A stretch of 64,000 nt of DNA, taken from positions 1-64,000 of the forward strand of contig OZ237739.1 in NCBI GenBank assembly GCA_965178125.1, in the 5' to 3' direction. A program made the translations under genes and the position numbers. Shown one piece after another: positions 4,021 through 47,671 of this stretch (its first letter is position 1; every line of letters begins with the position of its first letter). The notes below the pieces were generated by a model. It had not been told where the DNA came from. It saw nothing but the letters and a program-made list of their open reading frames with translations, and searched no databases. Source of the stretch: Bilabrum cf. latius (Eukaryota).

Positions 4021-4426
4021 ACAAATATTGAAGATGAAAATATTTTTTCCCCGACCCTGTCCCTGACTTTATATTAGATACCCTAACCCTAACCCTAACC
4101 CTAACCCTAACCCTAACCCTAACCCTAACCCTAACCCTAACCCTAACCCTAACCCTAACCCTAACCCTAACCCTAACCCTAACCCTAACCCTAACCCTAA
4201 CCCTAACCCTAACCCTAACCCTAACCCTAACCCTAACCCTAACCCTAACCCTAACCCTAACCCTAACCCTAACCCTAACCCTAACCCTAACCCTAACCCT
4301 AACCCCTAACCCTAAGAAAATATTTTTTCCCCGACCCTGTCCCTGACTTTATATTAGATACCCTAACCCTAACCCTAACCCTAACCCTAACCCTAACCCT
4401 AACCCTAACCCTAACCCTAACCCTAA

Positions 4427-6315: not shown

Positions 6316-9295
6316 ATGCGTGGTGCAAGAACAACATGTATCCACACTCCCACACTTCAAGGACATTACTAGATGGACATAGCTTCGATATGGTCGCGGT
6401 GTAGAACAATTATAAGCGAACGCGACCTTCACTTGGCCGGGAAACGCATAGTGGTCCCAGAAGTACAGTCGTGGAAGCGTCTCATGGGGTCATGCATGGT
6501 CAGTCACCCTGAGCCCAAGATATTGGTCTAGAATTTGGCGACCACGTTGCAGGCCTCGAAACTGTCTCTAGTAAGACGTGGCTGCATTAATAATCAAAGC
6601 TCAACTGGCAATGCAAGCATCCCGATCATGAATCGTACTTCCGGTTCGATTTCGTTCGCAGATTGTATCGCCCCCAGGACCAACGGGGACACTACTTCTG
6701 TAGACTTTGGCTGGCATATGCAAGTACGAATAGCCATGTGCGTCAAGTAGCTAGGCATCTGGAGGCCATGCAGCCCAAAGTCGAGCAGTCGAGCCACATG
6801 GCAGCATTCGATACGTACCTCGAACTGACAGCCATCAGTGCATGCTATCTGTTGAAGAGACGATGGCACTTGCGGTTGGCCTCTCTGTGGATATTCTTGA
6901 CTCATCCATCACTGAGGAGAAGGCCGCGAGCCATCTGCTAGAAATGTTTGGGCTTTTGCGTCTGAAAGACACACTCGTAGGAAGTAGCTGGGATTCCAGC
7001 CACGGAAATGGGCATTCCGGAATATCTGGGGGAGAGGTAAGATGTCATGGCTGCCACGCGCGCTTGTCTTGGGTTCGCCGCATTCAGCATGGATGCCACA
7101 CCGTTGCTTTGACCGATGCCTCTTGCATTTTCAACAGTCCCATTGTTTCATCACCACAGGCTAGACGACTATCAATTGCAGAAGCAATTTCCACCCCGAT
7201 GGCAGCTATGCTCCTCGACGAGCCGACTAACGGGCTGGATGCTGGCTGGGCGCTCCGAACTGTGGAGCTGCTTGGCCAGCTGGCCCGGTAGGCTCGCATC
7301 CCTGTGGTCATGACGCTGTAGTAGCCCTCGATAGATATATTCCAGCTGTTTGAGCACGTGGTCGTGCTTGGACTGGAGGGGCAGTGCATATACGAGGGGC
7401 CCCGGCAGGACGTGGCTCGGAGCTTGGTCTAGCGCGGCCTCGAGTGCCCGCTCCATGTGTCCCTCCCCGAGTGGCTCGTGGCGCTGGCATGCTCTCCGGG
7501 GGATGTACTGGCTGCGCACTGCCATCGATCGGGTTCACAGATCGCATCACCGTCCCCAAGCAGCCCCCTCTGGACACACGGCTAGAGCCGCGAGGAAGGC
7601 GCAGGGCGGGGGGTGGTCGGCAAACAAGGGCAAGTCACAGATGCAGTCAGCGGACAGATGTGCAATGACACTGGAAGTATCGCAGAGTCAAACACTACCG
7701 GAGACAATGTAGGCTAGGAAAGAGTGAAGGCCACCATCAGCCAGCTGGGCTCGAGCACCAGTAGTTTGCCAGCTCAAGTCCCCACGCAGGCCACTGTGTC
7801 TAGATCTGTTCAGGATACTCGCATGCCAGCACCTCCAGGTTGGACTACGCCGGATGCGGGCCGTTCCGAATTAGGCTCGCTGGACCGCATCTTCCACGAG
7901 CTGAGGCTGCTGCTGTGGGCAGATTGCCTTGTCGTGTGGCGGGACACTGCATATGTGAAGGCACACATTGTGAATGCAATTGTCATTGGGCTGCTGATTG
8001 GAGGGGTATACTTCCAGCTCGACTCTACCGATTACTAGCAGTAAGCCGCATCTGTGCATCACTAGCGCTTTGCCTCCTTAGCCTTCCCCTCACCTCCCTC
8101 TCCAAGATTGCACGCCGTGCCATCGTGCCGTCGCAGGGTGGTGTCGTTGTCGTATTTCTGCTACCTGTACTTGGTATCAGGTAACATCACAGTGATTCCG
8201 CTTGCTTTGAGATCCAGAGAAGTCGCCGCGAAGCATGTGCTCGCGTCGCGCGTTCGCTGGCCCTGTGCGCAGGCCTTGAGCGCGTGCCTAGCTACAATAC
8301 CGATCGCAGTATTGGAGTGCATCATCGTGTCGACCTGCTTCTACTTCATGGCAGGGCTCGTTCCGAATGCTGCGTCATACTCCCTCTTTGTTGGAATCGC
8401 CATTCTGGTGGACGTGGCGATGGCAGGCTATTTCAGATGCGTGGCCTGGCTGAGCGGGTCGAGAGGGTACGCCTTTGCCCAGTCGGTTGCTCTCGGCCCC
8501 TTGGCACTGATTCAGCTCACGAACGGGTTCGTGGTTACGCAAGAGAACCTCAGCCCGCTCTTCCAAGGCATTTATTGGGCTAACCCTCTCGCGCATGGGA
8601 TTCGGGCGGTGGCAATAGACCAGTTCCAGTCCCCTCGCTATGACCACAGGCTGCTGTTGGCGGCACCTCTGAATGGGTCCGCTGCCCTAGGTCCGCGGGC
8701 AGGAGATGCCTATTTGAATGCTTTCTAGATTTCAACAGAAAGAGGGGAATTCTGGGTTCTGGTTAGCCTAATGGTCCTCGTTCTGCAGGCCGTGTGTTGC
8801 AACGGATGCTCCATTGTGGCCTTCTCCTGCTGCATAGCTTCACCTGGAGATACTGCCATTCGCCATGCACGACCTGGGGTAAAACATGCTCGCAACGTGT
8901 TGGATGCCCTGGAGCGCGCGTCAGGCATTCCATCGCAGCCGGTCTAGGTATGTGAGGGTCGCCAGCCTGTCCCAAAACATGCATCGCCTCGATGCAGCAT
9001 CGCTTGGCAGGACCTGTCGGTTGCAGTGCACACCGATGCAGAGGACAAAGAAATACTGAGTAATGTCTATGGGATCTGTAGCAGTGGGCAGGTCGCGGCA
9101 GTCATGGGCAAGTCCGGGGCAGGGAAGAGCACGCTCATGAATGCGCTCGTTGGTGCGGCCCCAGCTGCTGGCTCAGTCCAGGGGACTGTGCGCGTTGGAT
9201 TTGCGAACGATCCTAGACGCGGTGGGCCTGCGGTTGCATACGTAGAGCAATTTTCCCACCTTGTGCCGCAGCAGACTGTGCTGGAGACATTGCAG
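6316..9295 (+). pseudogene. ABCG/PDR-type ABC transporter, 3'-truncated (NBD1-TMD1-partial NBD2)
   Basis: With TAG=Q and introns at ~6571-6661, 7037-7159 and 8041-8137 the frame is open. It gives a degenerate Walker A (IVSPPGPTGTLLLQTLAG), signature ISGGEARRLSIAE, Walker B MLLDEPTNGLD, H-loop region TL**PSIDIFQLF, TM segments, and NBD2 Walker A GKSGAGKST plus Q-loop YVEQ. No NBD2 signature or TMD2 follows. The start codon is uncertain. Confidence 0.75.
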
Positions 9296-9726
9296 GTGCC
9301 AGTGCCGGGGCTAGCAGGTTGGGTGTGTGGGCGATGGATGGGGCCATGGTGCCAGTGCCGGGGCTAGCAGGTCGGGTGTGTGGGCGATGGATGGAGGCCA
9401 TGGTGCCTGTGCTGGTGCAAGCAGGTCGGGTGTGTGGGCGATGGATGGGTCCATGGTGCCTGTGCCGGGGCTAGCAGGTCGGGTGTGTGGGGCGATGGAT
9501 GGGGCCATGGTGCCTGTGCTGGGGCAAGCAGGTCGGGAGTGAGGGCGATGGATGGGGCCATGGTGCCTGTGCCGGGGCAAGCAAGTTGGGAGTGAGGGCG
9601 ATGGATGGGGCCATGGCGGATGTGCTGGGGCAAGCAGGTCGGGAGTGCGGGCGATGGATGGGGCCATGGCGGATGTGCTGGGGCAAGCAGGTCGGGAGTG
9701 CGGGCGATGGATGGGGCCATGGCGCC
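9292..9726. repeat. ~58-59-bp minisatellite (~7 copies), probably intronic
   Basis: GGTGCC(A/T)GTGCCGGGGCTAGCAGGTCGGGTGTGTGGGCGATGGATGGGGCCAT repeated with progressive divergence. Confidence 0.9.
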
Positions 9727-9848
9727 TAGCACCATCGTTTCGAGCACAGATCTGGCTCAGTGCGATCGTGCGACCACTTGGACGCTGCACAGTATCGCCA
9801 TCTTGTGGACTCTGTCAACTTGTACGGAACATGCCAACTTTGGGGGAG

Positions 9849-9930: not shown

Positions 9931-11651
9931 ATGCAGATATTATTGGCTGCAATTCTTAGCGCATCAATCCTTGCTTTGGCACATGATGCGCCGTATGTAG
10001 GTGAGGGCCAACGTGAGGCTGAGCATTGGCTGCCTACCCGTGGATTCGCACGACAACGACCGGCTGCCCTCGATTCATTCGCCGGCATTTGGCCTTCCTT
10101 CCTCTATGGATCGACGAATTCGCAGCGGTTAATTCATACGACGCCACGAACGGCGCCTACAACGAGAGCCAGGTGCTGGCGGCCGCCGAGTACCTTGACA
10201 AGAGCGGCTACGCGGCGCGCACCATCGTCATCGACGGCGGATGGTACACGGATGCCGACGGTAACGCGATCATTGATGAGTACGGCCGCCCAATGCCGGA
10301 CCCGGAGCGGTTCCCGAGCTCCCGGGGCGGCCTCGGCTTCGGGCCGCTGGTGCAGAGGCTGCGGCAGTTCCAGAATTACGGGATGCTCAAGCTTGGCGTG
10401 TGGATGATCCGCGGGATCCCGCGCATCGCGGTTGAGAAAAACACCCCCATCTTCAACAGCAGCTTCCGAGCTCGCGACGCGTACACCCTCGAGACCAACT
10501 GTTCCTGGAGCTCTCTGGCCTTCGGTGTAGAGGCGCCCTCCCATGCGGGTGAGGCGTACTATAGCTCCTTGCACTCGATGCTGGCCGACTGGGGGGCCAC
10601 CTTCCTGAAAATGGACTGTATGTGGCCCTCAGAGAAGACTTGGAAGCAAGGGGAGAGCTTCCTTCCGGAGCTGGAGCTCTTCGGGCGCACCTTCAAGGCC
10701 GCCTCTATGTCCACGGGGCACTCCATCGACATCTCGCTCAGCCCGGGAGAGACGGTGACCCCTGCCAATGGAAGCTGGGTGGCCGCGCAAGGCTTTGCGA
10801 AGCTGTATCGCGTGACACAGGACCTCTGGGACGTGTGGCGCGCCGACAAAGGCGTACATTATCCGACGGACATCGTCAGCAAGCTCAACGTGGCAAGGGA
10901 TTTCGCCAAGGCGGGTCTCATTGGCGCCAACGGGTCGTTTCCAGACCTCGACATGATGCCCATTGGCAGGCTGGGGTCCCACGGCAAGCCCAGCGGGGGC
11001 AGGGAGGGCCCTGCAGGGTGCACCCACCTGACGGCCAGTCAGGCGCGGTTCGCCGCCACGCTCTGGGGCATTGCGAGGGCCCCTCTCGTGTACGGCGCGT
11101 ATCTTCCCCTGCAGCCGGACATGTACGACTGTGACAAAGTGGCGAAGGCGATCATGGAGAACCTGGGACTGCCGACGGTGCACTCGTTGGGCGTGGACCC
11201 GCGCGAGGTGAGCCGCGAGATGCCGCCCTGCTCGCAGGACGGAGGCGAGGGGGAGGACGAGGAGGGGATTGTCCCCCTGACTGCCACCTGGGTGTCGGGG
11301 GTGTGGGACCCCTTTGGCAAAGACGTGGCTAACGACGTGAACGTCGCAGTGCTCAACACGGACAGCAAGCCGAGGACAGTTACCATCCAATTCAACCAGA
11401 CCGGGTTAAAAGTAACTAGTATCGACAGGTGCTGGTGCACGCAGGACGTTTGGTATGACGACACCGGTGACGATGATAATGGAACTTGGCGCCCCTGGCC
11501 GCCTGGGGATGACCCGACGTCAACCTCCTCTGGATACATTACCCCGGACACGCCGCTCACTGTGACTGTTGGGCCCGAGGACGGATACCTGACCCTGCTG
11601 TACTCATCCAGCGAGAAGTACTATCCCTGCAAGCAGTGCAAGGGACGGTGA
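9931..11651 (+). CDS. Secreted glycoside hydrolase family 27 (alpha-galactosidase-like)
   Basis: Signal peptide MQILLAAILSASILALA and an intron at ~10001-10125. Motifs: NSYD, IVIDGGWY, DEYGRPMPDPERFPS, WGATFLKMDC, YRVTQDLWD and FPDLDMMPIG. TGA stop. Confidence 0.88.
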
Positions 11652-12155
11652 GCAGCAGGTGCCTCAATGCAAGCTTCATATTCTGTGCTGGCGAGCCTTT
11701 GGGCACACACACCACTGCGGCAGGTGTGACAACGCCCCCTAACTGGACGGGACGAGGCGACGCCCCCTAACTGGACGGGACGAGGCGACGCCCCCGGCAG
11801 AGCCACCACGGGGACGGGGCTAACGGGCACCTGGCCCGGGTCGAGCCGAAAAAAAGAAAACCCTAGGCTCGGGCGAACAGCGCCCCTGCCCGAGCCAAAC
11901 ATTCCGCTCAGGCGCGATCTCTGAAATCGAGACAAACCTAGTTTAAATAATTCCGCTTGGCAAAGTTGTCCCGTGCCCGAGCCGAACTTTCGGCTCGGGC
12001 ACGGCCGCCGTCTGCCACAGCCCAAGGTTCCGCTACGCCGGCGGCGCCAGCGGGACGTGCTGCACTGCATGGTGTGTCGGTTTCGTGAAGTTGCCACTGG
12101 TTGGTCGGCATCACCAGGGCACATTGCTCCTTCGCATAAATAGAGGGGGGTAAGG

Positions 12156-13115
12156 ATGCCCAAGGAAGTATCGGATGCCAAAACTATGAAAGGGGCCGAA
12201 ATCGCCAAGTCAAAGCCAAAGGATGAGCTGAAGGTCCCAGACCCGGCGTTTTCGTACCCCATGCTTCTTTTGGGATTCATGTGCTTCGTTCCCCACGCCC
12301 TGTTTCTGTGGCACAAGTACGAAACTACTAAGGACAAGGAAAACCCGTTTGGGGAGACACCGTGGTATGAGCCTGTGTCGTTGGCCGTGGGCTACCTCAC
12401 AATGCTATACCTCGGCCCTCTGGCGATGGCCGGCCGCAACTCGTTCCAGATCAAGGAAATTATGGTTGCCTACAACGTTTACCAAGTTATTCTCAATGCT
12501 GTTATGGTAGCTGGACTGTGGCATGGGGCATTGAATGATGGGCAGCCGCTGTGGGGCAAGGTGCTGGACTTTGGCCCGAAGGGACACCCGATCGCATTTT
12601 TCGTCTGGATGCACTACAACGACAAGTTTGTAGAATACCTAGACTCGTTGTTCTTTATCATGCGGCGCAACTTCTTCCTGCTGACTGGCCTGCACTGCTG
12701 GCATCACCTCATTATGGGTCCGGTGTGGTGGTGTGTGATCGCTTATGCTGCTGGAGGTGATGCATGGTACGGAAGCATGTGGAACTCGTTCATCCATGTC
12801 GTTATGTATGGATACTACGCCCTCAAGATCGTAAAGAGTCCCATCGCGAGCTCTATGCAGATGTGGGTGACTGTCCTATAGCTGGTGCAGTTCTGCGCCG
12901 TGGCCGCCCAGAGTGCCTACTTGCTGTATCGCGAGCATGCGCTGGGCATCCCCTCGTACCCGACTTGGCTGACCATCTTGCAGCTGCTTGTGATGATGAA
13001 CATGTTCGTGATGTTCATGCAGTACTTCGCCGGCAGGTACTGCGGGGGCAAGAAGAAGAGCAAGGGCAAGGACAAGGAGACGGCCGCCATCCAGGGCGGC
13101 AAGAAGACCGAGTGA
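12156..13115 (+). CDS. Fatty acid elongase (GNS1/SUR4, ELO family)
   Basis: Motifs KFVEYLDS, LHCWHH (HxxHH box), NSFIHVVMYGYY and TVL*LVQF, where TAG 12879-12881 sits at the conserved Q. C-terminal KKTE ER signal and TGA stop. Confidence 0.93.
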
Positions 13116-15528: not shown

Positions 15529-17232
15529 TCATCGAGGTCCACTGCTCTCGACCCGGCGCTTCTTCTTTGCGCCAACCCCAGAAGTGAGCAATCTACCGCC
15601 GGCGCGAGCATCGGAGTCGCCAGTAGCACCAGCCGCCTCTGCCTCCCCAGCGTCTACAGCTGCCTCGGCCTCGCCGTCCTCCTCAGCTTGCCCAGCCCCA
15701 GCCCCAGCCTCGCCGTCCTCCTCAGCTTGCCCAGCCCCAGCCCCAGCCTCGCCGTCCTCCTCAGCTTGCCCAGCCCCAGCCCCAGCCTCGCCTTCCTCCT
15801 CAGCTTGCCCAGCCCCAGCCCCAGCCTCGCCGTCCTCCTCAGCTTGCCCAGCCCCAGCCCCAGCCTCGCCTTCCTCCTCAGCTTGCCCAGCCCCAGCCCC
15901 AGCCTCGCCTTCCTCCTCAGCTTGCCCAGCCCCAGCCCCAGCCTCGCCGTCCTCCTCAGCTTGCCCAGCCCCAGCCCCAGCCTCGCCGTCCTCCTCAGCT
16001 TGCCCAGCCCCAGCCCCAGCCTCGCCGTCCTCCTCAGCTTGCCCAGCCCCAGCCCCAGCCTCGCCGTCCTCCTCAGCTTGCCCAGCCCCAGCCCCAGCCT
16101 CGCCGTCCTCCTCAGCTTGCCCAGCCCCAGCCCCAGCCTCGCCGTCCTCCTCAGCTTGCCCAGCCCCAGCCCCAGCCTCGCCGTCCTCCTCAGCTTGCCC
16201 AGCCCCAGCCTCGCCGCCCTCCTCAATCACGTCGGGGATCTCACCATCAGCAGGGAAATAAGCGGGGATGGCACTCCTGTATGCGTCCGTGGCCGCATAA
16301 TCAAAGACACAGAAAATGACCCGCTCCAGACAGCTGCTTCCTGCCATAGGGTCCTCTGGTTTGGCTGCATCAGGGCTGCCACTGTCGCCGCCTGCACCAG
16401 TGCCTTCAGTATCCGTGGCTGCGCGCCCAGGCGGAGTTACACCAGCTACATTCGGTCCAGAGGAAACACTCTGTTCCTTGGCCTCGCTTCTTTCACCACC
16501 ATCCGATGCAACCGCGCCGACCGCTGCGTCCTCGCTGCGAGCATCGGATGTATTTGCATCCCCACCTGCAGCAGACTCGGACCCTTTTGGTACATCTAGA
16601 GGCAGGCTAGTGGCCTGACTGTCAGCACTTCCTCCTGCGCCCTGTTTGCCTGCGCTTGCCTCACGTTCCCGAGCACTGCGGGCCATGTGGGCGCGCACCT
16701 CCTCGAGCGCGATACAGCTGGCTTCTTCCACGGGGTATCCATACACACCCGTGGAAACGCTGCAGAATGCAATGCTCTTAAGTTGGCGATTATCAGCTTC
16801 TCGCAGCACCGACCTGTAACACTGTCGCAGTTGGTGTTCTGCCTCATCGGCTCGCCGGCGGTAGTAAATCGGGCCAACGGTGTGAATCACAAATTTTGCA
16901 GGTAGGTTGAACCCATGAGTTGTCTTGGCATCGCCAGTATCGCAGCCTCGGAGTCGCCTGCAAGCGTTTAGTAGGCGGGGTCCCGCTGCCCGGTGGATGG
17001 CTCCATCAACCCCACCTCCACCAAGCAAGCTGCGATTCGCTGCATTCACAATAGCATCAACTGGCAACCTTGTGATATCTCCTCGCCACAAGTAGATGCT
17101 TGCAGATAATCGTTTCAGGATGTCAGGATCCAATGCTATTCGCTTGGCTTGTCTAGCTGATGCTTGTTGCGCATGCTGGCCGCCGTTCGCAAATACAACG
17201 CCAAGCTCGCGAATGCTTTTTAGCCCTTTCAT
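15529..17232 (-). CDS. Macrodomain protein (MacroD/YmdB-like) with acidic repeat tail
   Basis: [45 protein letters not shown] and [16 protein letters not shown] stop. Confidence 0.92.
15668..16222. repeat. 39-bp coding minisatellite (~14 copies) in the macrodomain gene
   Basis: Encodes [13 protein letters not shown] on the minus strand. Confidence 0.93.
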
Positions 17233-17394
17233 CGTCTGCCGATGTACGTGACAATGCTCTGGTCTTTCGTACAATTTCTGATTCGGCCAGGCCTTTCGTG
17301 GAATCGCACGCAACCGCGCCGGCAGAGAAAGCCCAGGCGGTCAGCACGTATTACAGCGGTTGCTATTGCCAAGACTCATTCTCCAGTTGATACA

Positions 17395-21305: not shown

Positions 21306-21967
21306 ATGGCTGCTAATCAAACAAGCGCAGCAGATTTCTCGCGAACGCGCCCACCGACCGTCTGGGAGTACCAGTGCCTGACCTCTGGATTCGCCGAGCC
21401 TGGCGGGCTCATGACTTGTTTGTACGTCATGTTTTGCCCCGTAAGAATCAATAAAGCCTTCTACAGTGCTAGCATGTCTGTAAACAACGCCATATTCTGA
21501 AACTCGCCCCATTCTCGCGCTGATCTCACGTTGCAGTGTTTGGCTGCCGGATGGGTGTGTGAGTCGAATACGATAGAACTAGGAATCGAATTGGTTTAAT
21601 TTAACTGCATGTCAGCTATCACCGGTGCTGTTCTGGAACGGTTCGTGATGCATTGTGAGCTAGCATGCGGATTAGATTGGATTCTCAGAAATTAGTTCCC
21701 ATTCTCTTCGCAGCCTCTGTGTCAGGGACAAACTACATCGGTTCAGTTCTATGCTACCTACCTTGCCCATGCGTTGTTGGCGGCTTGAACCGCGGTGCTC
21801 TCCGCGAGGTGATCGGAGTGGAGGGCAACATCGTGACGGATGTGCTGTGCCACCTGCCCGTGTGCACGTGCTGCGCTCTCTGCCAAGAGATCAACGAGAT
21901 GCAGTTCCGGGAAGGGTGCAACTACGGAATCAAGCGCGGGAAGCCCCTTCCCCCGGCCCAGGCGTGA
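21306..21967 (+). CDS. PLAC8-family cysteine-rich protein (multi-exon)
   Basis: CLYVMFCP followed by a GTAAG intron; last exon CPCVVGGLNRGALREVIGVEG...CTCCALCQEINE; TGA stop. Confidence 0.8.
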
Positions 21968-26100: not shown

Positions 26101-27498
26101 CGCCGGGCGGTGATGCTACGCGCCGAATCGCTGGCTCTGGGCGAGGCGCTGGACCAGTTCGCCCGCGAGACCGAGGGGCTCTCGGAGGAGCAAGGGGACC
26201 AGCGGGCTTCCTAGGTGGCTGCCTGGGCCCAGCAGCAGCGGGAGGCGATCAGCAGCTGGGAGAGCCGCAGCCAGGACCCGCGGGGCCGAGCGCTGCCTGC
26301 GCGACCTGCCAAGGACGGGAGGCGGCACGTGGTAGCCTACGAGGAGGACATGGAGGCGGGGGCCAGGCCAGTGGCTACCAGCGCGGCCGGCGTGCAGTGG
26401 CACCCCTTGCAGGGGGGCGTGCACAGCAAGGCCGCGGGGGCTGGGGCTGCGGGTGGGGCTGCATCTGGGTCGGGCGAGGGCCAGTCAGCCGTGCCCTCGC
26501 TGCCCCCCTTCACCATGCTCGCGGGCCCTCGGGACTCGGGCAAGAGCGCGGCCCTCCTGTACGCCGTGCACCGCGCCCGGCAGAGCGGCTGGGTTGCGCT
26601 CTTTGTGCCGGACAGCTTTTCGTGGCTCAATGACGCTGTCATGGTGACTGCGTCGGAGGCGAGGCCAGGCAAGCTTGACCAGCCAGACCTGTCTGCGGAG
26701 CTGCTGGCGCACATGCTGAGCGCGCATGCGGACCAGCTGGGCCAGGTGGTGCAGCGGCGGTCCTACCGCGTGGGCGAGTACCTTCCCTCCGATGCCGACG
26801 AGGAGGTCCGTCGCAAGAAGGAGGAGCTAAGGGCGGCGGACCTGTCCGAGCGGGCCCGGCGGCAAGCCGAGGCCAGCCAGAGGGGCGAGGACGCGGCTGA
26901 CGTGACGATCGAGAGCCAGCTGGAGGCCTTCGAGGAGGGCCCCGACCACGACCGCAAGGGGGAGGGGTACACCCTGAGGGACCTCTGCGAGTGGGGAGTG
27001 AGGCACCCGGGCCGCGCCTCGGACGCGGTGGTGGATCTGGTGGAGGAGCTGCGGCTGTGCGTGGAGTTCCCGGTGCTGCTGGCCGTGGATGGGGTCAACG
27101 AGCTGTACGAGAAGTCCGTGTATCCCTTTGCAGGCAGGCACTGGTGGCCCGGGCAGGCTCTCTCTGTGCCATCCACGATCGCCCCCTTTGATGCGAAGGG
27201 CCCCCGGGGGGAGGCCCTCGCGATGCGCAGGGGCGTGGTGCTGTGCTCCAGCACGTCCACCCACCGCAAGGTGCACGAGATGTCTCACAGGACCAAGGTG
27301 CCCAGCTCTTGCGTGCTGCGGATGCCGCGCATGTCCCGGCGGGAGGTGCACAACCAGCTGCTGCACTACCACATGACGGGCAGGTTCCTGTCTCTTCGGT
27401 TCAGGCAGGACGTGGACGCAGAGGCCGTGGAGACCTTCCGCACGCTGAGCTCGGGCATCCCGGGGCAGGTCCGGGAGGCGGCGCTGCAGGTCTTGTGA
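23128..27498 (+). CDS. DAP3: Mitochondrial ribosomal protein mS29/DAP3-like with a very long N-terminal extension (~1456 aa)
   Basis: Ser/Arg-rich presequence. One frame through 11 TAGs (23221, 23227, 23389, 23461, 23752, 24220, 24328, 24622, 24862, 25414, 26212). C-terminal P-loop LAGPRDSGKS and PVLLAVDGVN; TGA stop. Confidence 0.78.
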
Positions 27499-27705: not shown

Positions 27706-28374
27706 TCAGTTCGTGGCCGGGGGGTCCTTCTCGAACTCCATGAGAGCAAGAATGGCGGACGCCAGTAGGGAAGCACCCAGGATTGCGTAACCGGTCTGGT
27801 TCACTTCCTTGATCTCATGCCCCTGAGCGTTGTCCCACACAAGGTGCCTGATACCGCCCATCAGATGGAAAGTGAGAGGGAAAGCGACCCCAAAGCGAGC
27901 AATTGTGCCCATCATCGGCACCTGCTGCACGGTGTCGACGAACGTCTCAACCGAGAGACCGGTGAGGGCAAACATGGTCCCGCAGCCCTGGACGGCTGCG
28001 ATGTATTAAATATTTGGCACATGGAGAGCAGGTATCGCCTCAGGGATTGCGGCACAGCACACGCTTGCGAGTGATTGGATGGCAACAACATCTACATCAG
28101 TCTTACCGACGAACAGGAATATTCCGGTGCCTCGGAAGATCGTTGACGTAATCATGTTAATACCAAACTTGTAGATGGTAAGATGGGGGGACATCGGCCG
28201 GGGGCCCTTCGCCCTGGAAACCGCACCAGCAGCAGCTGAAGACTGGTACCTGGTTCGGTTCAAGTCAGCCGCTACCAGGCTCTGTGCCGCTGGTCGCGCA
28301 TGCACGAGCTGGCTCGAGCGAAGCGATCGCATTGATGACACCAAAGCAGAGCGTGCCCTTGCAACAGACGCCAT
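27706..28374 (-). CDS. SDHC: Succinate dehydrogenase cytochrome b560 subunit
   Basis: Presequence, RPMSPHLTIYKF...RGTG, intron ~27996-28106, FHLMGGIRHLVWD; TGA stop. Confidence 0.92.
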
Positions 28375-28639
28375 AGTTTTCTTCACACGGGCAAGAAATA
28401 GTCTGACGGGTTGATGGCCTGCGGATGCGGTTGTAACCAGCATTGAGGTTGCAACCGGGACTGGAGTTCCTCCCCACGGCGGGTGGGGATGCGGAGTATC
28501 CATGATTGGACATGCTGTGCATGCGATTTGATACTGCCTCAAATTTGCTTGTTGGGCCATGCAGTAATATTCATTGCTGAAACCCTCGTCATGCGGCACC
28601 AGGCATTGAGAGACTCCACAAGCCCGGTGCCTAGAATGC

Positions 28640-29360
28640 TCAGTGTGCCTCCCCGTCTGCCACTGCCTTGTTCCTCATCCAAAACCTTCGCACAAACCCA
28701 GACAGACCCACATCAGTGATATTGAACTTGAGCAACGCCGCAGCGGACACTACAGTAAATGCTCCGAGCCCCATGAGGATGGCCTTCTGCATGGACTCGT
28801 CCTGCACGCCCATGTGCGGCATATAATCGACCAGCACAGACCTCATGCCGATGTGAGCATGAAGGGGGACGATGAATCCCATGGACAGGTCCAGCACCGT
28901 CGAGAGCGGCGACGAGGTCACAACAGCGAGCGGGATACCAAGCGCCAAGCCGTAGGCGGTCAGGTGATGCACCTCCTTCACGCTCGAGGCGTGTGGCAAC
29001 CGATCAAGAAGAACTGCGAGATTAAGAGCAGCATACAATTAATTTAAGGATGTACGAAGCTATGGTGGTGTGAGTGAGGACGTGGCCGACTTGAGCTATG
29101 CTGCTCACGGTCAGGCAAAGCAGCCGGGGATGACGTCGAAATGCCTCGCGATGCAGTTGGCACAGCCTGGATCATACCTGCAATGCAAATTGAAGGTGCA
29201 AGGTGCGGTAGGTGCCTCCATTTCGATAACTTGCACATCCTACAAGAAGTTTCCATGTACCACTTGTACGGCGCAGTCGGCGTGATACCTTACCGTAGCG
29301 GGAGCTACAAGCGGCACTCAACTGAGCAAGTCGGCGAACGGACCTTCGGGCCAGCGCCAT
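28640..29360 (-). CDS. SDHD: Succinate dehydrogenase small membrane anchor (CybS)
   Basis: Presequence MALARRSVRRLAQ, introns ~29178-29293 and ~29014-29108, LHAHIGMRSVLVDYMPH and DVGLSGFVRRFW; TGA stop. Confidence 0.88.
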
Positions 29361-29487
29361 GATGCAGATATCAAGAGAATTAGCGGTGATACGGAAGCGA
29401 TAGCTTGTGGCTGGTTTTGCGGAACCACATGCGCGGCGACAATCGGCTGTGCGCCATGCAGCATATTTGCCTTGATCTCGAGCTGCC

Positions 29488-30600
29488 ATGCTTGCCCGGG
29501 CGTTTTCTCGAGTTGCACGGAGATCTACAAGTCTTGCTTTGCGATCGGTCCAGAGCCGAACACTGTCGAGCTCTAGCCCATGTGCTCAAGAGGCCGCAAC
29601 TGTGAGACATCTGCTGTAGTGATGAGGTGGCGATGGGCTTCTCGATGCCGAAGAGGCTTTTGCTCATGCCAACGCTATTATTTCAATTTATGAATCATAT
29701 CCGCACTGGCCGCTGCTGAAGGCACTTGTTAGCATCTTGAGCCAACACGGGAAGGTGACCGCTGAAGGCGTATTCCTAGTGTTTCTGATTTACACCTCTG
29801 TTCGCGTTGCTCTTGAGCATGCATGGGCGCATGATCCTTTTTTTTTGTTTGTATACTCGCAGGCCGGATCGAACATTAAGACTTTCAAGATTTATAGATG
29901 GGATCCCGAGGCGGATGACAGCAAGCCCGTGCTGCAGTCGTATGCCGTCGACCTGAATGAGTGCGGCCCCATGGTCCTTGATGCCCTCATCAAGATTAAG
30001 AACGAGCAGGATGCCACATTGACTTTCCGCCGGTCCTGTCGTGAGGGAATTTGCGGCAGCTGCGCGATGAACATTGATGGGGTGAACGGGCTGGCCTGTC
30101 TGACGTACATCCCCAAGGGGGAGGAGGCCAAGAGCGCGGACGCGGTGAAGATCTACCCGCTGCCTCACATGCACGTGGTGAAGGACCTGGTGCCTGACAT
30201 GTCGAATTTCTACGAGCAGTACAAGAGCATCCAGCCCTGGCTGCAGCGCAAGGACGACAAGGTGGATGAAAACACCGAGCTCTTGCAGTCTCACGACGAC
30301 CGCCGCAAGCTGGATGGCATGTACGAGTGCATCCTGTGCGCGTGCTGCTCTACGTCGTGCCCCTCGTACTGGTGGAACTCGGAGAAGTACCTGGGCCCCG
30401 CCGTGCTCATGCAGGCCTATCGGTGGGTGAGCGACTCGAGGGACCACTTCACCAAGGAGCGCATGCAGGCGCTGGATGACGAGTACAAGCTGTACAGGTG
30501 CCACCAGATCATGAACTGCACCAGGGTGTGCCCCAAGGGCCTCAACCCCGCCCGCGCCATCGCCAAGCTCGTCAAGGAGATGCCGGAGGCGTACGCGTGA
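29488..30600 (+). CDS. SDHB: Succinate dehydrogenase iron-sulfur subunit
   Basis: Presequence [12 protein letters not shown], intron ~29602-29862, [33 protein letters not shown] and [20 protein letters not shown] stop. Confidence 0.97.
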
Positions 30601-30838: not shown

Positions 30839-32492
30839 ATGACGAAGCGCCGCAGAGATGGGATGCCCTTCCGAAAGAGGCGTAGAAAGATTGAGTCAGC
30901 CGGGCCAGACCAGGAGAAGCTTGCTCAAGCCTCAGCCGGCGCTTTAGGGAACGACGCAACAGCAACTGTGGCTCGTCCAACCTTTGACCCGCTAACCGAC
31001 GAGGGGAAAAGCGCACTGGCCAGAAGATTAGCTGCTATAGGTACGTATTATTGATTTGGTCGCATGGTCTACGTTGGCTCTCCGATGATAACCCAAGGTT
31101 AGCTCTGTCGCTGCACTTGCTTTCGCAGATGAGGAGGAGCGGACTGCAGCCCTTGGAGAATTGCGCGATTGGTTCAAATCGAATGCTGCATCGATGACTA
31201 GGTTGCAGCATCTTCGCTTGTGGCGAGCCCTCTGGTATTGTCTGTGGCTGGCAGACAAGAGGCCGTACCAGCGTGTCGTAGCCGAAACCATCGCATCGTT
31301 GACCGACGGGCTGGATCCCAATGCTAGAGAGATGGACCTGGCTGCGTGCTTTGTCTACGTGGATGCAGGCCTCGAAACTATCCAACGTGATTGGGGCTCG
31401 CTGGATCGGTGGCGCATGGACAAGTTCCGCATGTTGCTTCGATTGCTGCTCTCGCAGCTGCTCAACATTGTGGCGAACCGATGCGACTTTGCTGCCCCTG
31501 CGTGCGAAGCTTACCTGGGAATCATCATGGGCAGGCTGCTTTCTCGGCCTCCCAATGATGTGCGGTTCTTTGCTTCCACCGTCCTGCCGCCTCTGATCGC
31601 CGGCCAGTGCGAAGGAGCCAGCACCGCACAGGTTCGCTTGCTCCTGATGCCCGTCTTTGCCACCATGCACGCCCCCGGAAGTGGAGGGGGCGCCCTGCAT
31701 GCCATTTTGAGAGAGAGGGTCGTGTGGACGCTCGTGGACGCTATCTCCTAGCAGGCGGCCGCACGGCGGGAGGAGCTGGAGCGGGAGCGGCAGGAAGACG
31801 ACAAGGAGGAGGAGGAGGTAGCGGCGGCCGGGGCCCGGAAGAAGAAGAAGCAAGGCAAGAAAAATAGCAAGGGCGAGAGCAAGATGACAGCAGGAGGCGT
31901 CGCAACCGCAGAGGCCCCTGGTGCCCCGGACATGGACGGCGTGGCACTGGGTAGGGTCAACACGGCCGCACTCGCTGCGGACGTGTTCGAGGTGGCTGCA
32001 CACCCGGGCACGGATGCTGAGGAGCGTTCGCTCTTGTACGCACTCGCAAAGAAGTGCAGGCTGGCAGCCGGGCGGGCGGGGCACGCCTACTCGTATACTC
32101 CTCCGGGTGCAGGCGCTGCGGTTGTGGTGGGGCGCGGGAGCGTAGTGCCTGGGGATGACGACTGCGATGCCGAGGTGGGGGGCATGCAGGTGGGGGCGGC
32201 TGCAGTGCTCGGTCTGCTCGCTGGGGCGGTAGACGAGGAAAGCGATGATTCCAGCAGCGAGGAGGAGGAGGAGGAGGATGATGATGAGGAGGAGGAGGAG
32301 GAGGAGGATGAGGATGAGGATGAGAAGGATGATCACACTTTAGGACCTTCCAGTGGAGCTGGTTCGAGCAGCATGTTGAGTGGAAAGAAGAGGAGGCGCG
32401 AGCAGGAGCACGAGGAGGGAGAGGCAGCTGCAGGCAAGCGCAAGGGCAAGGGCAAGGGCAGGAAGGGCGCCAAGGGCAGGAAGGGAAGATGA
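30839..32492 (+). CDS. RRP1: Nucleolar protein RRP1/Nop52
   Basis: LWRALWYCLWLADK and WGSLDRWRMDKF; intron ~31041-31128; in-frame TAG at 31749; acidic/basic tail; TGA stop. Confidence 0.85.
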
Positions 32493-33522: not shown

Positions 33523-36500
33523 ATGCCCCGTAAAGGTAGTACCAAAGCCGTGAGCATTATCTTTGATGCTTACATTTAGTTTTAAGAGTAACTTTGGTAT
33601 AGTTCGATGATATTTTGCAGTGCCTGAACGCTTTGACTCGATACGCACAACATTAATTGTTTTTTGCACCTCAAACGTTGATTGACGAGCCAACCTACTC
33701 CCAATGCCTGGAACAATACGCATGATCGCTAATAATCCTCGCAGGGTTTTGTTCGTCCTAGATCAGCGCGTACACCTGACAGACAGACATCATCCCAAGG
33801 CGCCGGGCCAGACAGCAGTTCACACGGCTCTATCTCGAGTCGGAGTCCGAAACGGAAGGCTAGACGCACACAGGAGTCAAACAACGTGCGAATTGATGAC
33901 GCAACCTCCTCGTCCGAATAGAAAGTGCGGCCGAAACGGGCTGCATCCAAGGGAGTTGCGGGCGCCGTGCAAAAAGCGGCTGGTCGTGTTCCAAGCCATC
34001 CAACTTCAATTTCTACACCCAAGAGCAACCAACAGCTTCTTTTACCTTAGGGAGAACGTTCTGGTCGGGCGGGGTCTGAGGGAAACTCAACCAAAACCCC
34101 GCGCAGCACCCGCACCCCGGATGGTGGGGGGAGGTCGTCGAGGGGCAAGAAGAAGGGCGCCCGGCCGGCAAGCAGCGAGGACGAGGATGATGACGATGGG
34201 TTCGGCTTCGACCGTGAGAGCTTGGGCAGTGGAGGCGCGGCATCAACGAAGGTCGCTGCAAGCGGCCAGCCCCTGCGCAGCACCCGCACCCCGGATGGTG
34301 GGGGGAGGTCGTCGAGGGGCAAGAAGAAGGGCGCCCGGCCGGCAAGCAGCGAGGACGAGGATGATGACGATGGGTTCGGCTTCGACCGTGAGAGCTTGGG
34401 CAGTGGAGGCGCGGCATCAACGAAGGCCGCTGCAAGCGGCCAGCCCCTGCGCAGCACCCGCACCCCGGATGGTGGGGGGAGGTCGTCGAGGGGCAAGAAG
34501 AAGGGCGCCCGGCCGGCAAGCAGCGAGGACGAGGATGATGACGATGGGTTCGGCTTCGACCGTGAGAGCTTGGGCAGTGGAGGCGCGGCATCAACGAAGG
34601 CCGCTGCAAGCGGCCAGCCCCTGCGCAGCACCCGCACCCCGGATGGTGGGGGGAGGTCGTCGAGGGGCAAGAAGAAGGGCGCCCGGCCGGCAAGCAGCGA
34701 GGACGAGGATGATGACGATGGGTTCGGCTTCGACCGTGAGAGCTTGGGCAGTGGAGGCGCGGCATCAACGAAGGCCGCTGCAAGCGGCCAGCCCCTGCGC
34801 AGCACCCGCACCCCGGATGGTGGGGGGAGGTCGTCGAGGGGCAAGAAGAAGGGCGCCCGGCCGGCAAGCAGCGAGGACGAGGATGATGACGATGGGTTCG
34901 GCTTCGACCGTGAGAGCTTGGGCAGTGGAGGCGCGGCATCAACGAAGGCCGCTGCAAGCGGCCAGCCCCTGCGCAGCACCCGCACCCCGGATGGTGGGGG
35001 GAGGTTGTCGAGGGGCACGAAGAAGGGCGCCCGGCCGGCAAGCAGCGAGGACGAGGATGATGACGATGGGTTCGGCTTCGACCGTGAGAGCTTGGGCAGT
35101 GGAGGCGCGGCATCAACGAAGGCCGCTGCAAGCGGCCAGCCCCTGCGCAGCACCCGCACCCCGGATGGTGGGGGGAGGTCGTCGAGGGGCAAGAAGAAGG
35201 GCGCCCGGCCGGCAAGCAGCGAGGACGAGGATGATGACGACTACGGTGAGAGGGTAAGCACACCGCTGAAGTCAGCAGCTAGTGGTGCTGGAGCTAGCGA
35301 TCCTTCTTCAGATAGCGATGAGAACGTCGACGCTTCTGCTGGCTCCCTTGGCGTATTTCTACATTCTTAGCATACTAACAGTTCCCTGCAACGTGCAGAG
35401 AAAGGTGCAGCTCAGCTCTTGGAGTACATGGGTGCGGAGTTCAACTTGAACAACCTGCATGCTGTTTGGGAAGAGTTCATCAAGTCGCGCAAGGGTGAAC
35501 AGCCCGTTGCTCGTGGTGCCGGGAATAAGGCGGTCGAGAACATGTGCATCCTGGAATTGTCAGGTGGTGTGATTCGCGAGCTATTGCAGGCGAATGCTGT
35601 CATGCAGAAAGCCAAGGCGTCTTTCAAACTGGGTCCGAAGCACACCTGGAAGGCACAGGAAGCGAATGTATTCCTGCAGATTGCAGCATGGCTGCTAACG
35701 GACGAGGCCCAATTCTCTTACGGCTCCGTTGGCAAGCGGACAGGCATGCTGCAGTTCACAAGTATAGTCCCGTCTGCTGTTCAAGCGATGGTCAAGGCCG
35801 CGAGTAAGGGCGAAGGGACATCCTCCAAAGTGGCAACCTCAGCAACAACAAAGAAATCGGAGGATCGCCGAGTTTTGTGGGGCAGGTTTGGCCAATGGTT
35901 CCGGAAGGCACTGGAACAGGCGCGATCGGTAACCTCTCAGCTCAAGCAGAAGGTGTTGTCGTCGTCCGTCACTGGGAATGGGTCGCTAGTTTTCCACGTT
36001 GCAAGGGCTCTACATTCTGCCGCTTCGGACTTGCCTGGGCAGCACGAAGCTGTGGTTGGTGCATTGGGCACGCTGGTCGATTTCTTGAAGGGCGAAAAGA
36101 GCATGTCCGACAAGAAGAAGGCTCTAGCCCAGAATGTACGCAGTTCGCTGAAGCTCCAGGGAGCTGACATGCCATGGACCAAGGAGTGGATACAGTCGAT
36201 CCAAGCTTCTGTGCACAGGGCGGGTGATGGAGAGGCTGAGGTGCTCACAGGATCCATGTCAGTGCCTAAGGAGGTCATCAAGAAAAAAGGGAAAATGAAG
36301 GGCCAACGAGCGAAAAAAGCGACCAGCCATGGACCTGATCATATGGCTGCCTTGATTGAGCAGCATGCCCGCGGCAACGCCGCCATCCAGGAGGTCCTGC
36401 AACGGATCATGGGACCACCTGCAACCGACACCCAGCGTCCCCAGGATGAAGCAATGAAGGCTGCACAGAGGGATGGTACCAGTGGCCTATACCCCGGTGT

Positions 36501-44721: not shown

Positions 44722-47671
44722 ATGTCATTGGCTGGTGGATAGCGAACATTTGATATCTAGGAAGCATAGCGCGGTGAGGAGGTCCAGAGTAGATGCCAAG
44801 AAGCGCAAAAATCCAAGCAGCAGCTGTGACAACTGTCTTGAAGCATGCGTACCCGCACTCCCACCATTCGCAGATGCATTTGTGCAGGCGTTAGCCCTAG
44901 CCGATGGACGAGACGTCGATGGAAGCCCCGGCTAGGATCCATACGGCAAGGCTCCGGCTGCCCTTGAGTCTGATGGCAGCCCAAGCCGAGCCTGGGGCGA
45001 TGCTTGGAAGGTCCTCGTGCTGGACCCGTTCGCCAGAGCGGTCGTAGCGCCCCTCCTTCCAGTCTAGTAGCTGCGACGCATTGGTGTCACCCTGCATCTG
45101 CCACTTGAAGCTGCTCGCGAGAGCATCCCGGACGCCCCGGCCGTGTATGTCACCAGGCCGCGACCACCCGAGCTGGCTCGACTTGCGGTGGACCTAGCAT
45201 GGAGTAGCGCGGATGCCTGCAAGTCCGCACTAAGCGCTAGCACAGGGCCCAGCGCCAGCGCTGCCTCCACCTCCGCCACCTCCGCGCTGACATCCTCGTC
45301 TGCCCTGGCGGCTGCCTGGCCCGCCATCCGAGACGCGGCTCCGGGGGCGGCACCGGCCGGGGCAGACGCCGGGGCAGCAGCTGTGGAGGGCGCGGATCAG
45401 CCGCAGCCCCCGGGTCTGTACGGCGGGACCCACCTGCTGCTGTCGCATCCTTGCCCCCGGCCTCAGCTGGAGGAGCTCGCGGGGAGGGTGGCAGCGGCGG
45501 ATGATGCTGTGGCACGCAGGGCGCTGGGTGCCGGCCTAAGAGGAGGTTCTTCTCCCCCAGCCCCCTCAAATGCCCCCAGGGAGCTGCCCCCCGGTGTGGT
45601 GCTCCCCTCCCAGTCCCTCCTCAGCGTGCGGGAGGCCCCCCTCGGGTTCCTCGCACCCCTGCCCACGCTCTTCCACCTCGCGCAGCCCGGCATCTTCAGG
45701 CTGCTCACCGCACCGTCTGCCACGGAGCCGGCGGTCAAAGCAGCCGTCCGTGCCTCGGCGGAGGGGCTGGCGGCCGCCCTCGCCGCCCTGGACGCACCCG
45801 CCGAGATCGCCTCTCCCCCGGACGGGCCCGCCGCGGCTGTGGCCCAGGAAGCCGCGGAGATCATGAGGGCCGCGGGGCGGGCGGGGCACGGGGCTTTCAG
45901 GCAGAGGGGCGGGGCTGGGCCCGCTGCGATCTCTCGGGACAGGCCACTGGTGGTGGTGCTGGACCGGGGGGCCGATTTGGCGGCTGCCCTGCGGCACCCA
46001 GGGACCCTGGCCGGGCTGCTGGGGGAGGCAGTGGGCTCGCTGGGGCAGGCGGGCACTAGGGTGAGGACCAGCATGGACGTGGCCAGGCCGGCGGGGAGCG
46101 GCGCGGGCGGCGGGGCCGGTGCGGGGAGCAGCGAGGGGGAGGCCGGTGGCGGGCTGGGCACTCTGTTCGCAGGGCTGGTCGGTGGTGCGGCCGGTGCAGG
46201 GGCGGGAGCCGGCGCGGGTGCAGGCGCGGGCGGGGCTGCAGAGGTGGTGCAGGTGGATCTGGATGCGGGCGATTCGTTCTGGTCGCGCGCAGCCGGGCTG
46301 GAGTGGACCGCGGCGGTGCAGGCGCACAAGCGGGCGCTGGACGAGGTGGCGGCCCGGGAGGCGAAGGTCCGGAGCCAGGGAGAGGGCGGGGGTGCGGCCG
46401 CGGGGTCCGGTGCGGGGGCGGGGGCAGAGGGTGGCGACCTGCACGAGGCACTGAGCTCGCTGCCTGCCGTGTTGCGCAGCAAGGAGCGGCTGGCGAGGAT
46501 GGGCAAGCTGCTGCGGGCCGTGGACAGGCGCATGGGGCTCCGGTCGCTGGACAAGTTCTTCCTGCTGGGGCAGGAGAGCGTGGCGGGGCCGGGGGCGGGC
46601 TCCATGGAAGGGGAGCAGGTAGTCCAGATGGTGGCGGGCGAGGTGGACGCCACTGACGCGGAGGAGGAGGGAGGCCCCAGTGGCGGAGGGGCGGGAGCGG
46701 CGGAAGGGGAGGGCGCTGACGACCGGGCGTGCGGGGCGGGGTCGCTGTCGGATCGCGCGCGACTGGCCTGTCAGTTCGTGGCCACTGTTAGCGAGAGATC
46801 GGCTCGGCAGCTGGTGGAGAAGGCCGAGGGCGGCGGCGCTGGGGGTGCCGGCAATGCCGACGAGGCAGCGGGCGCCCTGTGGGAGCGGCTGGCAGACGTG
46901 CTCTGCGGGGCGCTGGAGGCAGGCGCGGGCAAGGTCAGCGGCAGGGTGCAGGCCGCCACGACGTCCCTCCTGTGGGCCGGGGACCTCGAGCTGGCCGGGG
47001 GCCCAGACCCCATGCCGCAGGCCTCGGTGGCCGTGCCCGCCTCTGAGGCAGAGGCCTCCCCTGCCCCTGGCCCGGGCACCCCCGGCTTCGAGGACGAGCT
47101 CAAAGCGGCGCAGGACGCGGTGCTCTTCTGCGCAGAGCAGCGGCGCGTGGTGGATCTGCTCGCGGCGCAGCACAGGGGCGGGGAAGGGGGGGCCCCGGGG
47201 GCTGGACGCGCGATCGCGGCTGCGCTGGGCGAGGGCGCGGGCGCGCAGTGGCTGGCTGGGCTGGGGTCCCACGTGGACACGCTGCTCGCCTCTGCCTCCA
47301 AGCACATCGGGAGGCTGGTGGAGGGGGACGCGCGGGCCCCGCTCACGAGGCTAGTGGCGGCGGCTGCGGGGGACGCCGAGAGTGGCTCCGTGGGGGGCCC
47401 TGCGGCGGAGCAGGCCGATTCGCTCCGGGTGGTGGATCCCGCGGGAGGCAAGGCGGGGAGGGTGGGGCGGGGCACGCCCCGGCGGCGCGTGATCGCGTAC
47501 TTTGTTGGCGGCGTGACGATGGGCGAGTGGTCCGACCTGCAGCGGTGGGGCCGCGCCGCCAAGCCGCCCAGAGAGATCATCGTGGGAGGCACCTGCCTGC
47601 TGGAGCGGGAAGCGCTGCTGCGCGACATGGCCCGGATCGGGAAAGAGGCCAGAGCCAGGCGAAGAGGGTGA
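44722..47671 (+). CDS. SLY1: Sec1/Munc18 family protein, Sly1/SCFD1-like
   Basis: WKVLVLD...APLLPV**LRRIGVTLHL...IPDAPAVY, RPLVVVLDRGADL and VIAYFVGGVTMGE...IIVGGT. One 5' intron; TGA stop. Confidence 0.85.

Follow-up and report, generated by a model that had tools for sequence, protein, structure and literature searches.

Layout and gene models of the cluster

The window analyzed here comprises 64,000 nucleotides (nt) of Bilabrum cf. latius (contig OZ237739.1 of assembly GCA_965178125.1, positions 1 to 64,000), and our analysis centers on 2.9 kb of this protist nuclear chromosome (27706-30600) that hold three genes of mitochondrial complex II, succinate dehydrogenase (SDH), side by side. These are SDHC (SDH3, the cytochrome b560 large anchor subunit) and SDHD (SDH4, the CybS small anchor subunit), both on the minus strand, and SDHB (SDH2, the iron-sulfur subunit) on the plus strand. 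The start codons of SDHD and SDHB stand head to head with exactly 127 nt between them, as an earlier note on this DNA had estimated, while the stop codon of SDHD is followed on the same strand, after 265 nt, by the ATG of SDHC. The genes for one eukaryotic enzyme are normally scattered, and three of the four complex II genes within 2.9 kb are thus a rare and compact counter-example. The clustered three are, moreover, exactly those that some mitochondrial genomes keep.

The gene models were built by sequence logic only, that is, from stop-to-stop open reading frames (ORFs) and from spliced models assembled by script. In each of the three genes, the spliced coding sequence (CDS) is a multiple of three with a single terminal stop, and is interrupted by one GT-AG intron, with phases that agree across every junction. 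SDHB (29488-30600, +) encodes 283 amino acids. Its exon 1 (29488-29601) is a 38-codon presequence with six basic (R+K), one acidic (D+E) and 12 S+T residues, whose ATG is preceded by an in-frame stop five codons upstream. A phase 0 intron of 261 nt (29602-29862, GTGAGA...TCGCAG) separates it from exon 2 (29863-30600), which contains the entire mature protein and the stop codon and matches the Pfam Fer2_3 and Fer4 families. SDHD (28640-29360, -) encodes 146 amino acids in a spliced CDS of 441 nt. Here an upstream exon is required, as no in-frame ATG precedes the conserved part in exon 2; this exon 1 (29360-29294) carries the presequence MALARRSVRRLAQLSAACSSRY in 22 codons plus one base, with five basic and no acidic residues. 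The SDHD intron (29293-29014) is 280 nt long, of phase 1, and reads GTAAGG...TCGCAG, and exon 2, including the stop codon, spans 29013-28640. SDHC (27706-28374, -) encodes 185 amino acids in a CDS of 558 nt. Its exon 1 (28374-28107) contains a presequence of about 57 residues and the start of the mature protein (RPMSPHLTIYKF...FRGTG), with nine basic and one acidic residue among the first 57. The phase 1 intron of 111 nt (28106-27996, GTAAGA...TCGCAG) has a GC content of 0.49, as compared to 0.58 for the SDHC CDS, and exon 2 (27995-27706), which includes the stop codon, agrees in splice phase with exon 1.

The introns of SDHB and SDHD both lie at the end of the presequence, where the earlier note had placed them, and that of SDHC lies inside the mature protein, between the two matches to Sdh_cyt, the Pfam family of this subunit. 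R, S, A and L abound in the N-termini of all three proteins (22 residues in SDHD, 38 in SDHB and about 57 in SDHC), which contain five to nine basic but only zero to one acidic residues. These extensions resemble mitochondrial presequences, and import into the mitochondrion is predicted for all three products. Indeed, the claim that each gene possesses a presequence and a spliceosomal intron of its own proved correct. It should also be noted that the hexamer TCGCAG closes all four introns delimited in the window, namely, those of the three SDH genes and one at 31041-31129 in the Nop52-like gene that lies to the right of the cluster. The organism may thus use a 3' splice-site consensus that is extended, although with four introns this is an impression and not a statistic.

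Protein identity and sequence affinity

A Pfam search with six pieces of the locus (SDHB, SDHD, SDHC exon 1, SDHC exon 2 and the two flanks) gave a match for each of the six. Together with the PDB matches and the spliced models, it bore out the identities and strands that had been assigned to the three genes from the sequence. For SDHB exon 2, the matches were to Fer2_3 (9.3e-34, 116 bits, with a cutoff of 27), Fer4_17 (1.8e-11), Fer4_8 (3.5e-10) and Fer4_10, such that the protein carries an N-terminal 2Fe-2S ferredoxin-like domain and a C-terminal 4Fe-4S/3Fe-4S dicluster domain. When compared with avian SDHB (1yq3_B), exon 2 yielded E = 3.4e-114, with three cysteine motifs aligned column for column. 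SDHD exon 2 matched CybS (PF05328) at 5.8e-17 and 62 bits (cutoff 27) over profile positions 31-132 of 133. Its match to porcine SDHD (2.8e-6) places PLHAHIGMRSVLVDY over TLHGHWGIGQVVTDY and keeps the LH.H...DY pattern (PLHAHIG...VDY over porcine TLHGHWG...TDY). In SDHC, the Sdh_cyt profile (PF01127) was matched twice, by exon 1 over positions 4-35 (6.6e-6, 26.7 bits, cutoff 25.8) and by exon 2 over positions 47-121 (2.7e-11, 44.1 bits, same cutoff), and this succession of profile positions on two exons is the pattern expected of a split gene. The best PDB match of SDHC exon 2 was avian SDHC (3.6e-12, FPLTFHLMGGIRHLVWD aligned to FPLSYHTWNGIRHLVWD), and exon 1 aligned to residues 16-49 of the same protein, so that the alignment runs through RPxSPH...S...RGTG and H...G.RHLVWD. 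The roles in Fe-S, haem and ubiquinone binding that we give to the aligned residues of SDHB, SDHC and SDHD are presumably those known for complex II of pig and bird, whose structures have been solved, and the allotment of the SDHB cysteine motifs to the three Fe-S clusters is likewise assumed. On this basis, the haem ligand would be the His of the H..G.RHLxWD region in SDHC and of LH.H in SDHD, and the quinone site would involve Ser and Arg of S...RGTG in SDHC and the Asp-Tyr pair of SDHD. By these matches and the presequences, we regard SDHC, SDHD and SDHB as canonical, functional nuclear complex II genes.

Two details of the anchor subunits can be added. In SDHC, TIFRGTG stands where the avian and porcine proteins have SITHRGTG, with Phe replacing the His before the quinone-site Arg; this was the sole departure that we noticed. 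In SDHD, the C-terminal tail (28640-28680, -) extends 12 residues past the conserved ...FW and has His as its last residue. Longer tails ending in His are also found in P0122 and P0123, the only two non-self SDHD relatives detectable, whereas animal SDHD stops two residues past the aligned Trp.

The relatives of the three proteins are unevenly represented in the databases. For SDHB, the closest non-self relative in the protein database is 78% identical, and diatoms and Nannochloropsis follow at about 73%. For SDHC exon 2, a large protein database gave two matches among four candidates (P0124, 99% identical, and P0125, 87%), and for SDHD it gave three matches among 87 candidates, with P0122 and P0123 at 48% identity. 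As so few relatives of SDHD and SDHC are detectable, the lineage appears to be poorly sampled. No relative of SDHD (searched as an alignment) or of SDHC (searched with exon 2) was found in two scans of a prokaryotic genome collection. Of the gene trees that the earlier note had suggested, the one built was for SDHB: in a FastTree analysis of 120 rows, the window sequence falls in a clade of 37 rows (support 98), one EukProt transcript among them, which adjoins a clade of 78 rows containing diatoms and Nannochloropsis, although the sample was selected by similarity and the tree should be taken as a lead only. Within the SDHB relatives, P0005, P0007, P0008, P0018 and P0027 begin, or turn to junk, just upstream of KxFKIYRW, as does the window ORF P0001. 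Such starts would fit an intron conserved in this clade at the junction of presequence and mature protein. Some members of the same clade carry long N-terminal extensions.

The lineage of the organism matters, as it bears on whether adjacency of SDHC and SDHD in the window is the same event as the adjacency reported for chlorophytes (see below). The usual chlorophyte telomeres are TTTAGGG or TTTTAGGG, and the window begins with a telomere of the TTAGGG type. Taken together, the telomere type, the SDHB tree and the structural match of the neighboring mS29 gene lean towards a non-green organism, similar to stramenopiles or to the SAR group (Stramenopila, Alveolata and Rhizaria) as a whole, with none of the three being decisive. 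In the ESM Atlas, the clusters nearest to SDHD and mS29 were from Basidiomycota and Chlorophyta, which we take as reflecting a shared GC-rich amino-acid composition.

The earlier note had also proposed locating SDH1 (SDHA) and the SDHAF genes, and this was done within the window. No SDHA or SDHAF was found by Pfam among the 128 window ORFs of at least 160 amino acids (15 of which had any match), nor in the shorter ORFs of 70-159 amino acids with a GC content at third codon positions (GC3) of at least 0.62, of which 150 out of 170 were scanned (five with a Pfam match). In particular, neither FAD_binding_2 nor Succ_DH_flav_C was matched in these 128 and 150 ORFs.

Possible promoter sharing and the origin of the linkage

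The earlier note had stated that these nuclear genes are unlinked in animals and yeast, and this background turned out to be incomplete. In a survey of conserved gene neighborhoods in chlorophytes (Foflonker & Blaby-Haas 2021, PMC7826186), where the criterion was proximity in at least four of nine genomes, SDH3 and SDH4 appear as conserved proximal genes (rows 776-777 of supplementary information file 1, which holds 317 neighborhoods). The pair is found in Chlamydomonas reinhardtii (Cre01.g020350 and Cre01.g020305), Volvox carteri (Vocar.0045s0012 and 0013), Chromochloris zofingiensis (chr07.g322 and g321) and Coccomyxa subellipsoidea (52339 and 52340), that is, in four of the nine genomes and in two classes. 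In Chlorella variabilis, Picochlorum, Bathycoccus, Micromonas and Ostreococcus, the entry is "present", meaning that the orthologue exists but is not proximal. The genes flanking the Volvox pair encode a WD40 protein and a tRNA methyltransferase. SDH is nowhere named in the main text of the survey. As in the window, then, nuclear SDH3 and SDH4 are immediate neighbors in these algae; there, however, SDH2 is not listed with the pair, and the table gives no orientation. As the window organism does not look like a chlorophyte, the two may be independent cases. Our literature search, in which subscription journals were thinly covered, found no paper describing a nuclear SDH cluster, the supplement of PMC7826186 being the only record. 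The SDHC-SDHD half of the layout has thus already been recorded and is conserved in chlorophytes, while the joining of SDHB through a divergent promoter appears to be new.

The cluster has two spacers. The divergent region between SDHD and SDHB (29361-29487, 127 nt) is predicted to act as a shared, bidirectional promoter. Going upstream from each start codon, the first ATG is met at 32 nt for SDHB, 70 nt for SDHD and 69 nt for SDHC, such that a 5' untranslated region (UTR) free of upstream ATGs could span at most 31 nt for SDHB and 69 nt for SDHD. If the 5' UTRs are indeed free of upstream ATGs, the transcription starts of both genes would fall within the 127-nt region, and a shared divergent promoter would then be almost unavoidable. 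The second spacer, between SDHD and SDHC (28375-28639, -, 265 nt), must hold the 3' end of SDHD as well as the promoter and 5' UTR of SDHC. It contains eight sense-strand ATGs, and neither a tRNA nor an Rfam match was found in it. The best word common to both spacers is the 9-mer GCCATGCAG, which should be regarded as a lead only. A scan for sigma-70 promoters and terminators gave two promoter-like and two terminator-like sites, no more than in shuffled sequences; this is a bacterial-type scan and is irrelevant to a eukaryote.

Head-to-head genes with close starts are the classic layout for shared promoters, and the human SDHD-TIMM8B pair is also arranged head to head. Pairs with a bidirectional promoter are recognized by divergent transcription starts within roughly 1 kb of each other and by correlated expression. 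SDHD and SDHB resemble the eukaryotic pairs with bidirectional promoters in being related genes on opposite strands with starts 127 nt apart. They differ in that the partners here are subunits of one enzyme, with a third subunit in tandem, and in that the sharing of the promoter is deduced from the layout.

We favor, with a probability of about 0.5, the reading that the locus is a compact and probably co-regulated complex II neighborhood, in which SDHD and SDHB would share a divergent promoter and SDHC lies in tandem. According to this model, the three genes are probably transcribed as separate units. The 127-nt region would hold the core promoters of both SDHD and SDHB and drive their divergent transcription, and SDHC follows SDHD on the same strand after the 265-nt spacer. 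The products would be imported by means of their own presequences and then assembled with SDHA, which would be encoded outside the window. The shared promoter, together with a common local chromatin state, could thus keep production of the Fe-S subunit in step with that of the two anchors that share the haem. The adjacency would have arisen, or been kept, by selection or promoter sharing, rather than being an undisturbed fossil of a block of mitochondrial DNA (mtDNA). The sequence establishes what the genes are, that they are intact, and how they are spaced and oriented; promoter sharing, co-regulation and selective maintenance are what we infer.

Chance is a poor explanation for such a layout. 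By our own calculation, the probability that three named genes are consecutive when gene order is random is 6/(N(N-1)), or about 6e-8 for N = 10,000 genes, a gene number that we assumed for this genome, and even when thousands of possible same-complex triples are allowed for, the probability stays well below 1e-3. That SDH3-SDH4 is conserved in chlorophytes is a precedent, by analogy, for part of such a layout being under selection. At the same time, several points weigh against a co-regulated neighborhood and should be considered. No promoter motif shared by the two spacers stands out. Of 500 shuffles, 72 had at least as many shared 7-mers and 62 at least as many shared 8-mers. The gaps around the cluster are 207 nt (convergent, from the mS29 stop to the SDHC stop) and 238 nt (from the SDHB stop to the Nop52 start), next to the 265 nt within it. 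Short gaps are hence locally normal, and the 127-nt gap, while short, is not exceptional for this compact region and alone is no proof of a specialized bidirectional promoter. With SDHA outside the cluster, any stoichiometric co-regulation would be incomplete, and as the chlorophyte pair is not proximal in five of the nine genomes, any selection on it is not strong. Co-regulation is, moreover, a prediction, and the main evidence for selection would be conservation of the three-gene layout in relatives.

As the three clustered genes are exactly those still encoded by some mitochondrial genomes, one has to ask whether the linkage is inherited from the organelle. The bacterial operon order is sdhCDAB. 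In the literature, sdh3-sdh4 is given as a syntenic block of cryptophyte mtDNAs, and Sdh2-4 as mtDNA-encoded in the jakobid Andalucia. Ancyromonas mtDNA encodes sdh2 and sdh3; the gene to which sdh2 is linked in the mtDNAs of ancyromonads is nad7, not sdh3. The window cluster is like the sdhCDAB operon and the mitochondrial sdh3-sdh4(-sdh2) blocks in that the same families are physically linked, but unlike them in consisting of separate nuclear genes with introns and presequences, in running from SDHD to SDHC with SDHB on the opposite strand, and in showing no polycistronic signal. A transfer en bloc would mean that a fragment of mtDNA with sdh3, sdh4 and sdh2 entered the nucleus, that promoters, presequences and introns were gained there, and that the linkage survived with local inversions. 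We consider this unlikely, though well worth keeping in mind. Besides the gene content known from Andalucia and the cryptophytes, it would be in line with the absence from the scanned window ORFs of SDHA, which is not reported as mtDNA-encoded in the literature read, with the subtelomeric location, and with the introns of SDHB and SDHD, which divide the presequence from the mature part as if presequence exons had been added; the SDH3-SDH4 adjacency of chlorophytes could be a second relic of this kind. The order of the genes, however, does not help. The earlier note had held that the order C-D-B was kept, and superficially the physical order is indeed C-D-B, yet transcription runs from SDHD to SDHC with SDHB divergent, the reverse of sdhC to sdhD in bacteria and of sdh3-sdh4 in cryptophytes. 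At least two rearrangements separate this layout from one colinear with C, D and B, and the order therefore carries almost no signal of ancestry. Nor were remnants of mtDNA found between the genes (neither tRNAs nor Rfam matches and, in the scanned ORFs, no other mitochondrial family), and the codon GC3 is like that of the neighbors. The 37-row SDHB clade, with the starts of P0005, P0007 and P0008, further suggests that a nuclear SDHB of this structure predates the organism. The idea of a relic is thus alive but draws no positive support from this sequence.

A wider version of common entry, in which sdh3, sdh4 and sdh2 reached the nucleus as a group, or one after another at a single permissive site near a telomere while borrowing each other's promoter, and have been linked since, is in our view speculative and also on the unlikely side. 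If it were true, the chlorophyte SDH3-SDH4 pair would be a second, independent instance, and it would follow either that the physical linkage of organelle-derived subunit genes outlives endosymbiotic gene transfer or that selection for co-expression of the anchor dimer re-creates the linkage repeatedly. Together with the little-noticed green-algal pair, the window thus raises the question of whether the linkage of organelle genes outlives their nuclear transfer or is rebuilt by selection for co-expression. The interest of the locus would rise sharply if the block were conserved across lineages or traceable to mtDNA. If, on the other hand, relatives lack the layout, the cluster would be a lineage-specific curiosity, perhaps of use where a small, naturally occurring bidirectional promoter is wanted for mitochondrial genes.

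The linkage might also be a neutral accident without regulatory meaning: the genome is compact, and rearrangements in its dynamic subtelomeric portion could have brought the genes together. The cluster does lie about 27 kb from the telomere, in the vicinity of a satellite with interstitial telomere repeats, its flanks are functionally mixed (mS29 and Nop52), genes in this region are closely spaced in general and the motif search gave nothing significant. Nonetheless, the very low prior calculated above, even with many possible triples, and the recurrence of the SDHC-SDHD half as a conserved pair in four chlorophytes make us doubt this explanation. Expression of SDHD and SDHC from one dicistronic mRNA, in an operon-like manner as in green algae, seems to us quite improbable. 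SDHD and SDHC do follow one another on the same strand at a distance of 265 nt, no obvious word resembling a poly(A) signal was seen by eye in the spacer, and green algae do have bicistronic mRNAs for mitochondrial proteins, as in the bicistron of TOM22-like and SDHAF3-like proteins described by Gallaher et al. 2021 (PMC7896298). In that system, small neighboring ORFs serve the biogenesis of mitochondrial complexes and are expressed together; there, however, they lie on single mRNAs with short gaps between the ORFs, while here the gap is 265 nt and its eight sense-strand ATGs would hamper leaky scanning or reinitiation. The organism does not, in addition, appear green-alga-like, and no passage naming the SDH3/SDH4 pair was found in the main text of PMC7896298.

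An artefact or foreign DNA, whether a misassembly, a nuclear insert of mitochondrial DNA (NUMT) or a recently acquired bacterial sdh operon, would be suggested only by the resemblance of the gene content to sdhCDAB, and its probability is close to negligible. The window contains no N and the three genes occupy just 2.9 kb, each has a spliceosomal GT-AG intron and a presequence, and the two scans of the prokaryotic genome collection found no relative of SDHD or SDHC. In the protein database, the clusters with the SDHB and SDHD ORFs of the window both contain a single contig entry of equal length (7,750 nt), which might point to a second assembly in which the two genes occur together. E. coli SdhC matched SDHC exon 2 at only E = 0.73, and SDHD belongs to CybS (PF05328). 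We take this family to be described by Pfam as eukaryotic and mitochondrial. The earlier note had argued that the cluster is not a NUMT, and rightly so: the frames are intact, introns and presequences are present, the GC3 of 0.68-0.80 is neighbor-like and there are no tRNAs or other mitochondrial fragments. An sdhCDAB-like operon with the order C-D-(A)-B was dismissed, as transcription of the tandem pair goes from SDHD to SDHC and SDHB faces the other way. A bacterial insert was ruled out by the introns, the presequences, the CybS-type SDHD and the lack of prokaryotic relatives.

Chromosomal setting and other genes of the window

The window starts at a chromosome end. Tandem Repeats Finder identified (CCCTAA)n at 1-373, a telomere of the TTAGGG type, followed by a 155-bp satellite at 372-5586 (33.5 copies). 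Interstitial telomere blocks occur in the satellite zone at 1591-1790, 2508-2862, 4080-4428, 5646-5857 and 5968-6078. The telomere repeats and the satellite account for a GC skew that is strongly negative over the first 6 kb. In codon composition, the cluster does not differ from its surroundings on this GC-rich chromosome, as nine neighboring coding pieces have GC3 values of 0.54-0.89. The values of SDHC, SDHD and SDHB lie inside this local range, and there is thus no compositional sign of recent arrival.

To the left of the cluster and convergent with SDHC lies the last large exon of the gene for the mitoribosomal protein mS29/DAP3 (26215-27498, +; Pfam DAP3, 8.9e-20). It also matches mS29 chains in the PDB, the best being 6z1p (5e-11), ahead of 6xyw and 8a22/8apn, so that the mitochondrial character claimed for this neighbor holds. 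We take 6z1p to be the Tetrahymena mitoribosome, 6xyw that of Arabidopsis and 8a22/8apn those of Polytomella. To the right lies a gene for a Nop52/Rrp1-like nucleolar protein (30839-31748, +; Pfam Nop52, 3.3e-32), with its intron at 31041-31129. The mS29 neighbor adds little to the interpretation of the cluster, since a mitochondrial gene on one of two sides is no great surprise and the gene on the other side is nucleolar.

Further genes of the window were assigned by Pfam: an ABCG-type transporter (6755-8725, +; ABC_tran and ABC2_membrane), an ELO fatty-acid elongase (12144-13112, +), a Macro-domain protein (15532-17340, -), a PLAC8 protein (21659-21964, +), a Sec1-family protein (45071-47668, +) and an ankyrin-repeat protein (56588-57724, +). 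A translation GTPase of the LepA/GUF1 type is spread over several ORFs at 57871-59961 (-; LepA_C 4e-38, GTP_EFTU, EFG_III and EFG_C), and by its family is a further organelle-related gene of the window, besides mS29. Many long ORFs of high GC3 have no Pfam match, for example, that at 10023-11648 (+), with 542 amino acids and a GC3 of 0.80. Near-perfect tandem arrays are found at 9295-9727 (53 bp x 8.1), 15668-16210 (39 bp x 13.9), 34097-35240 (174 bp x 6.6) and 54460-55514 (60 bp x 17.3). The 39-bp array falls inside the coordinates of the Macro-domain ORF, and the array at 54-56 kb coincides with an AT skew of -0.53.

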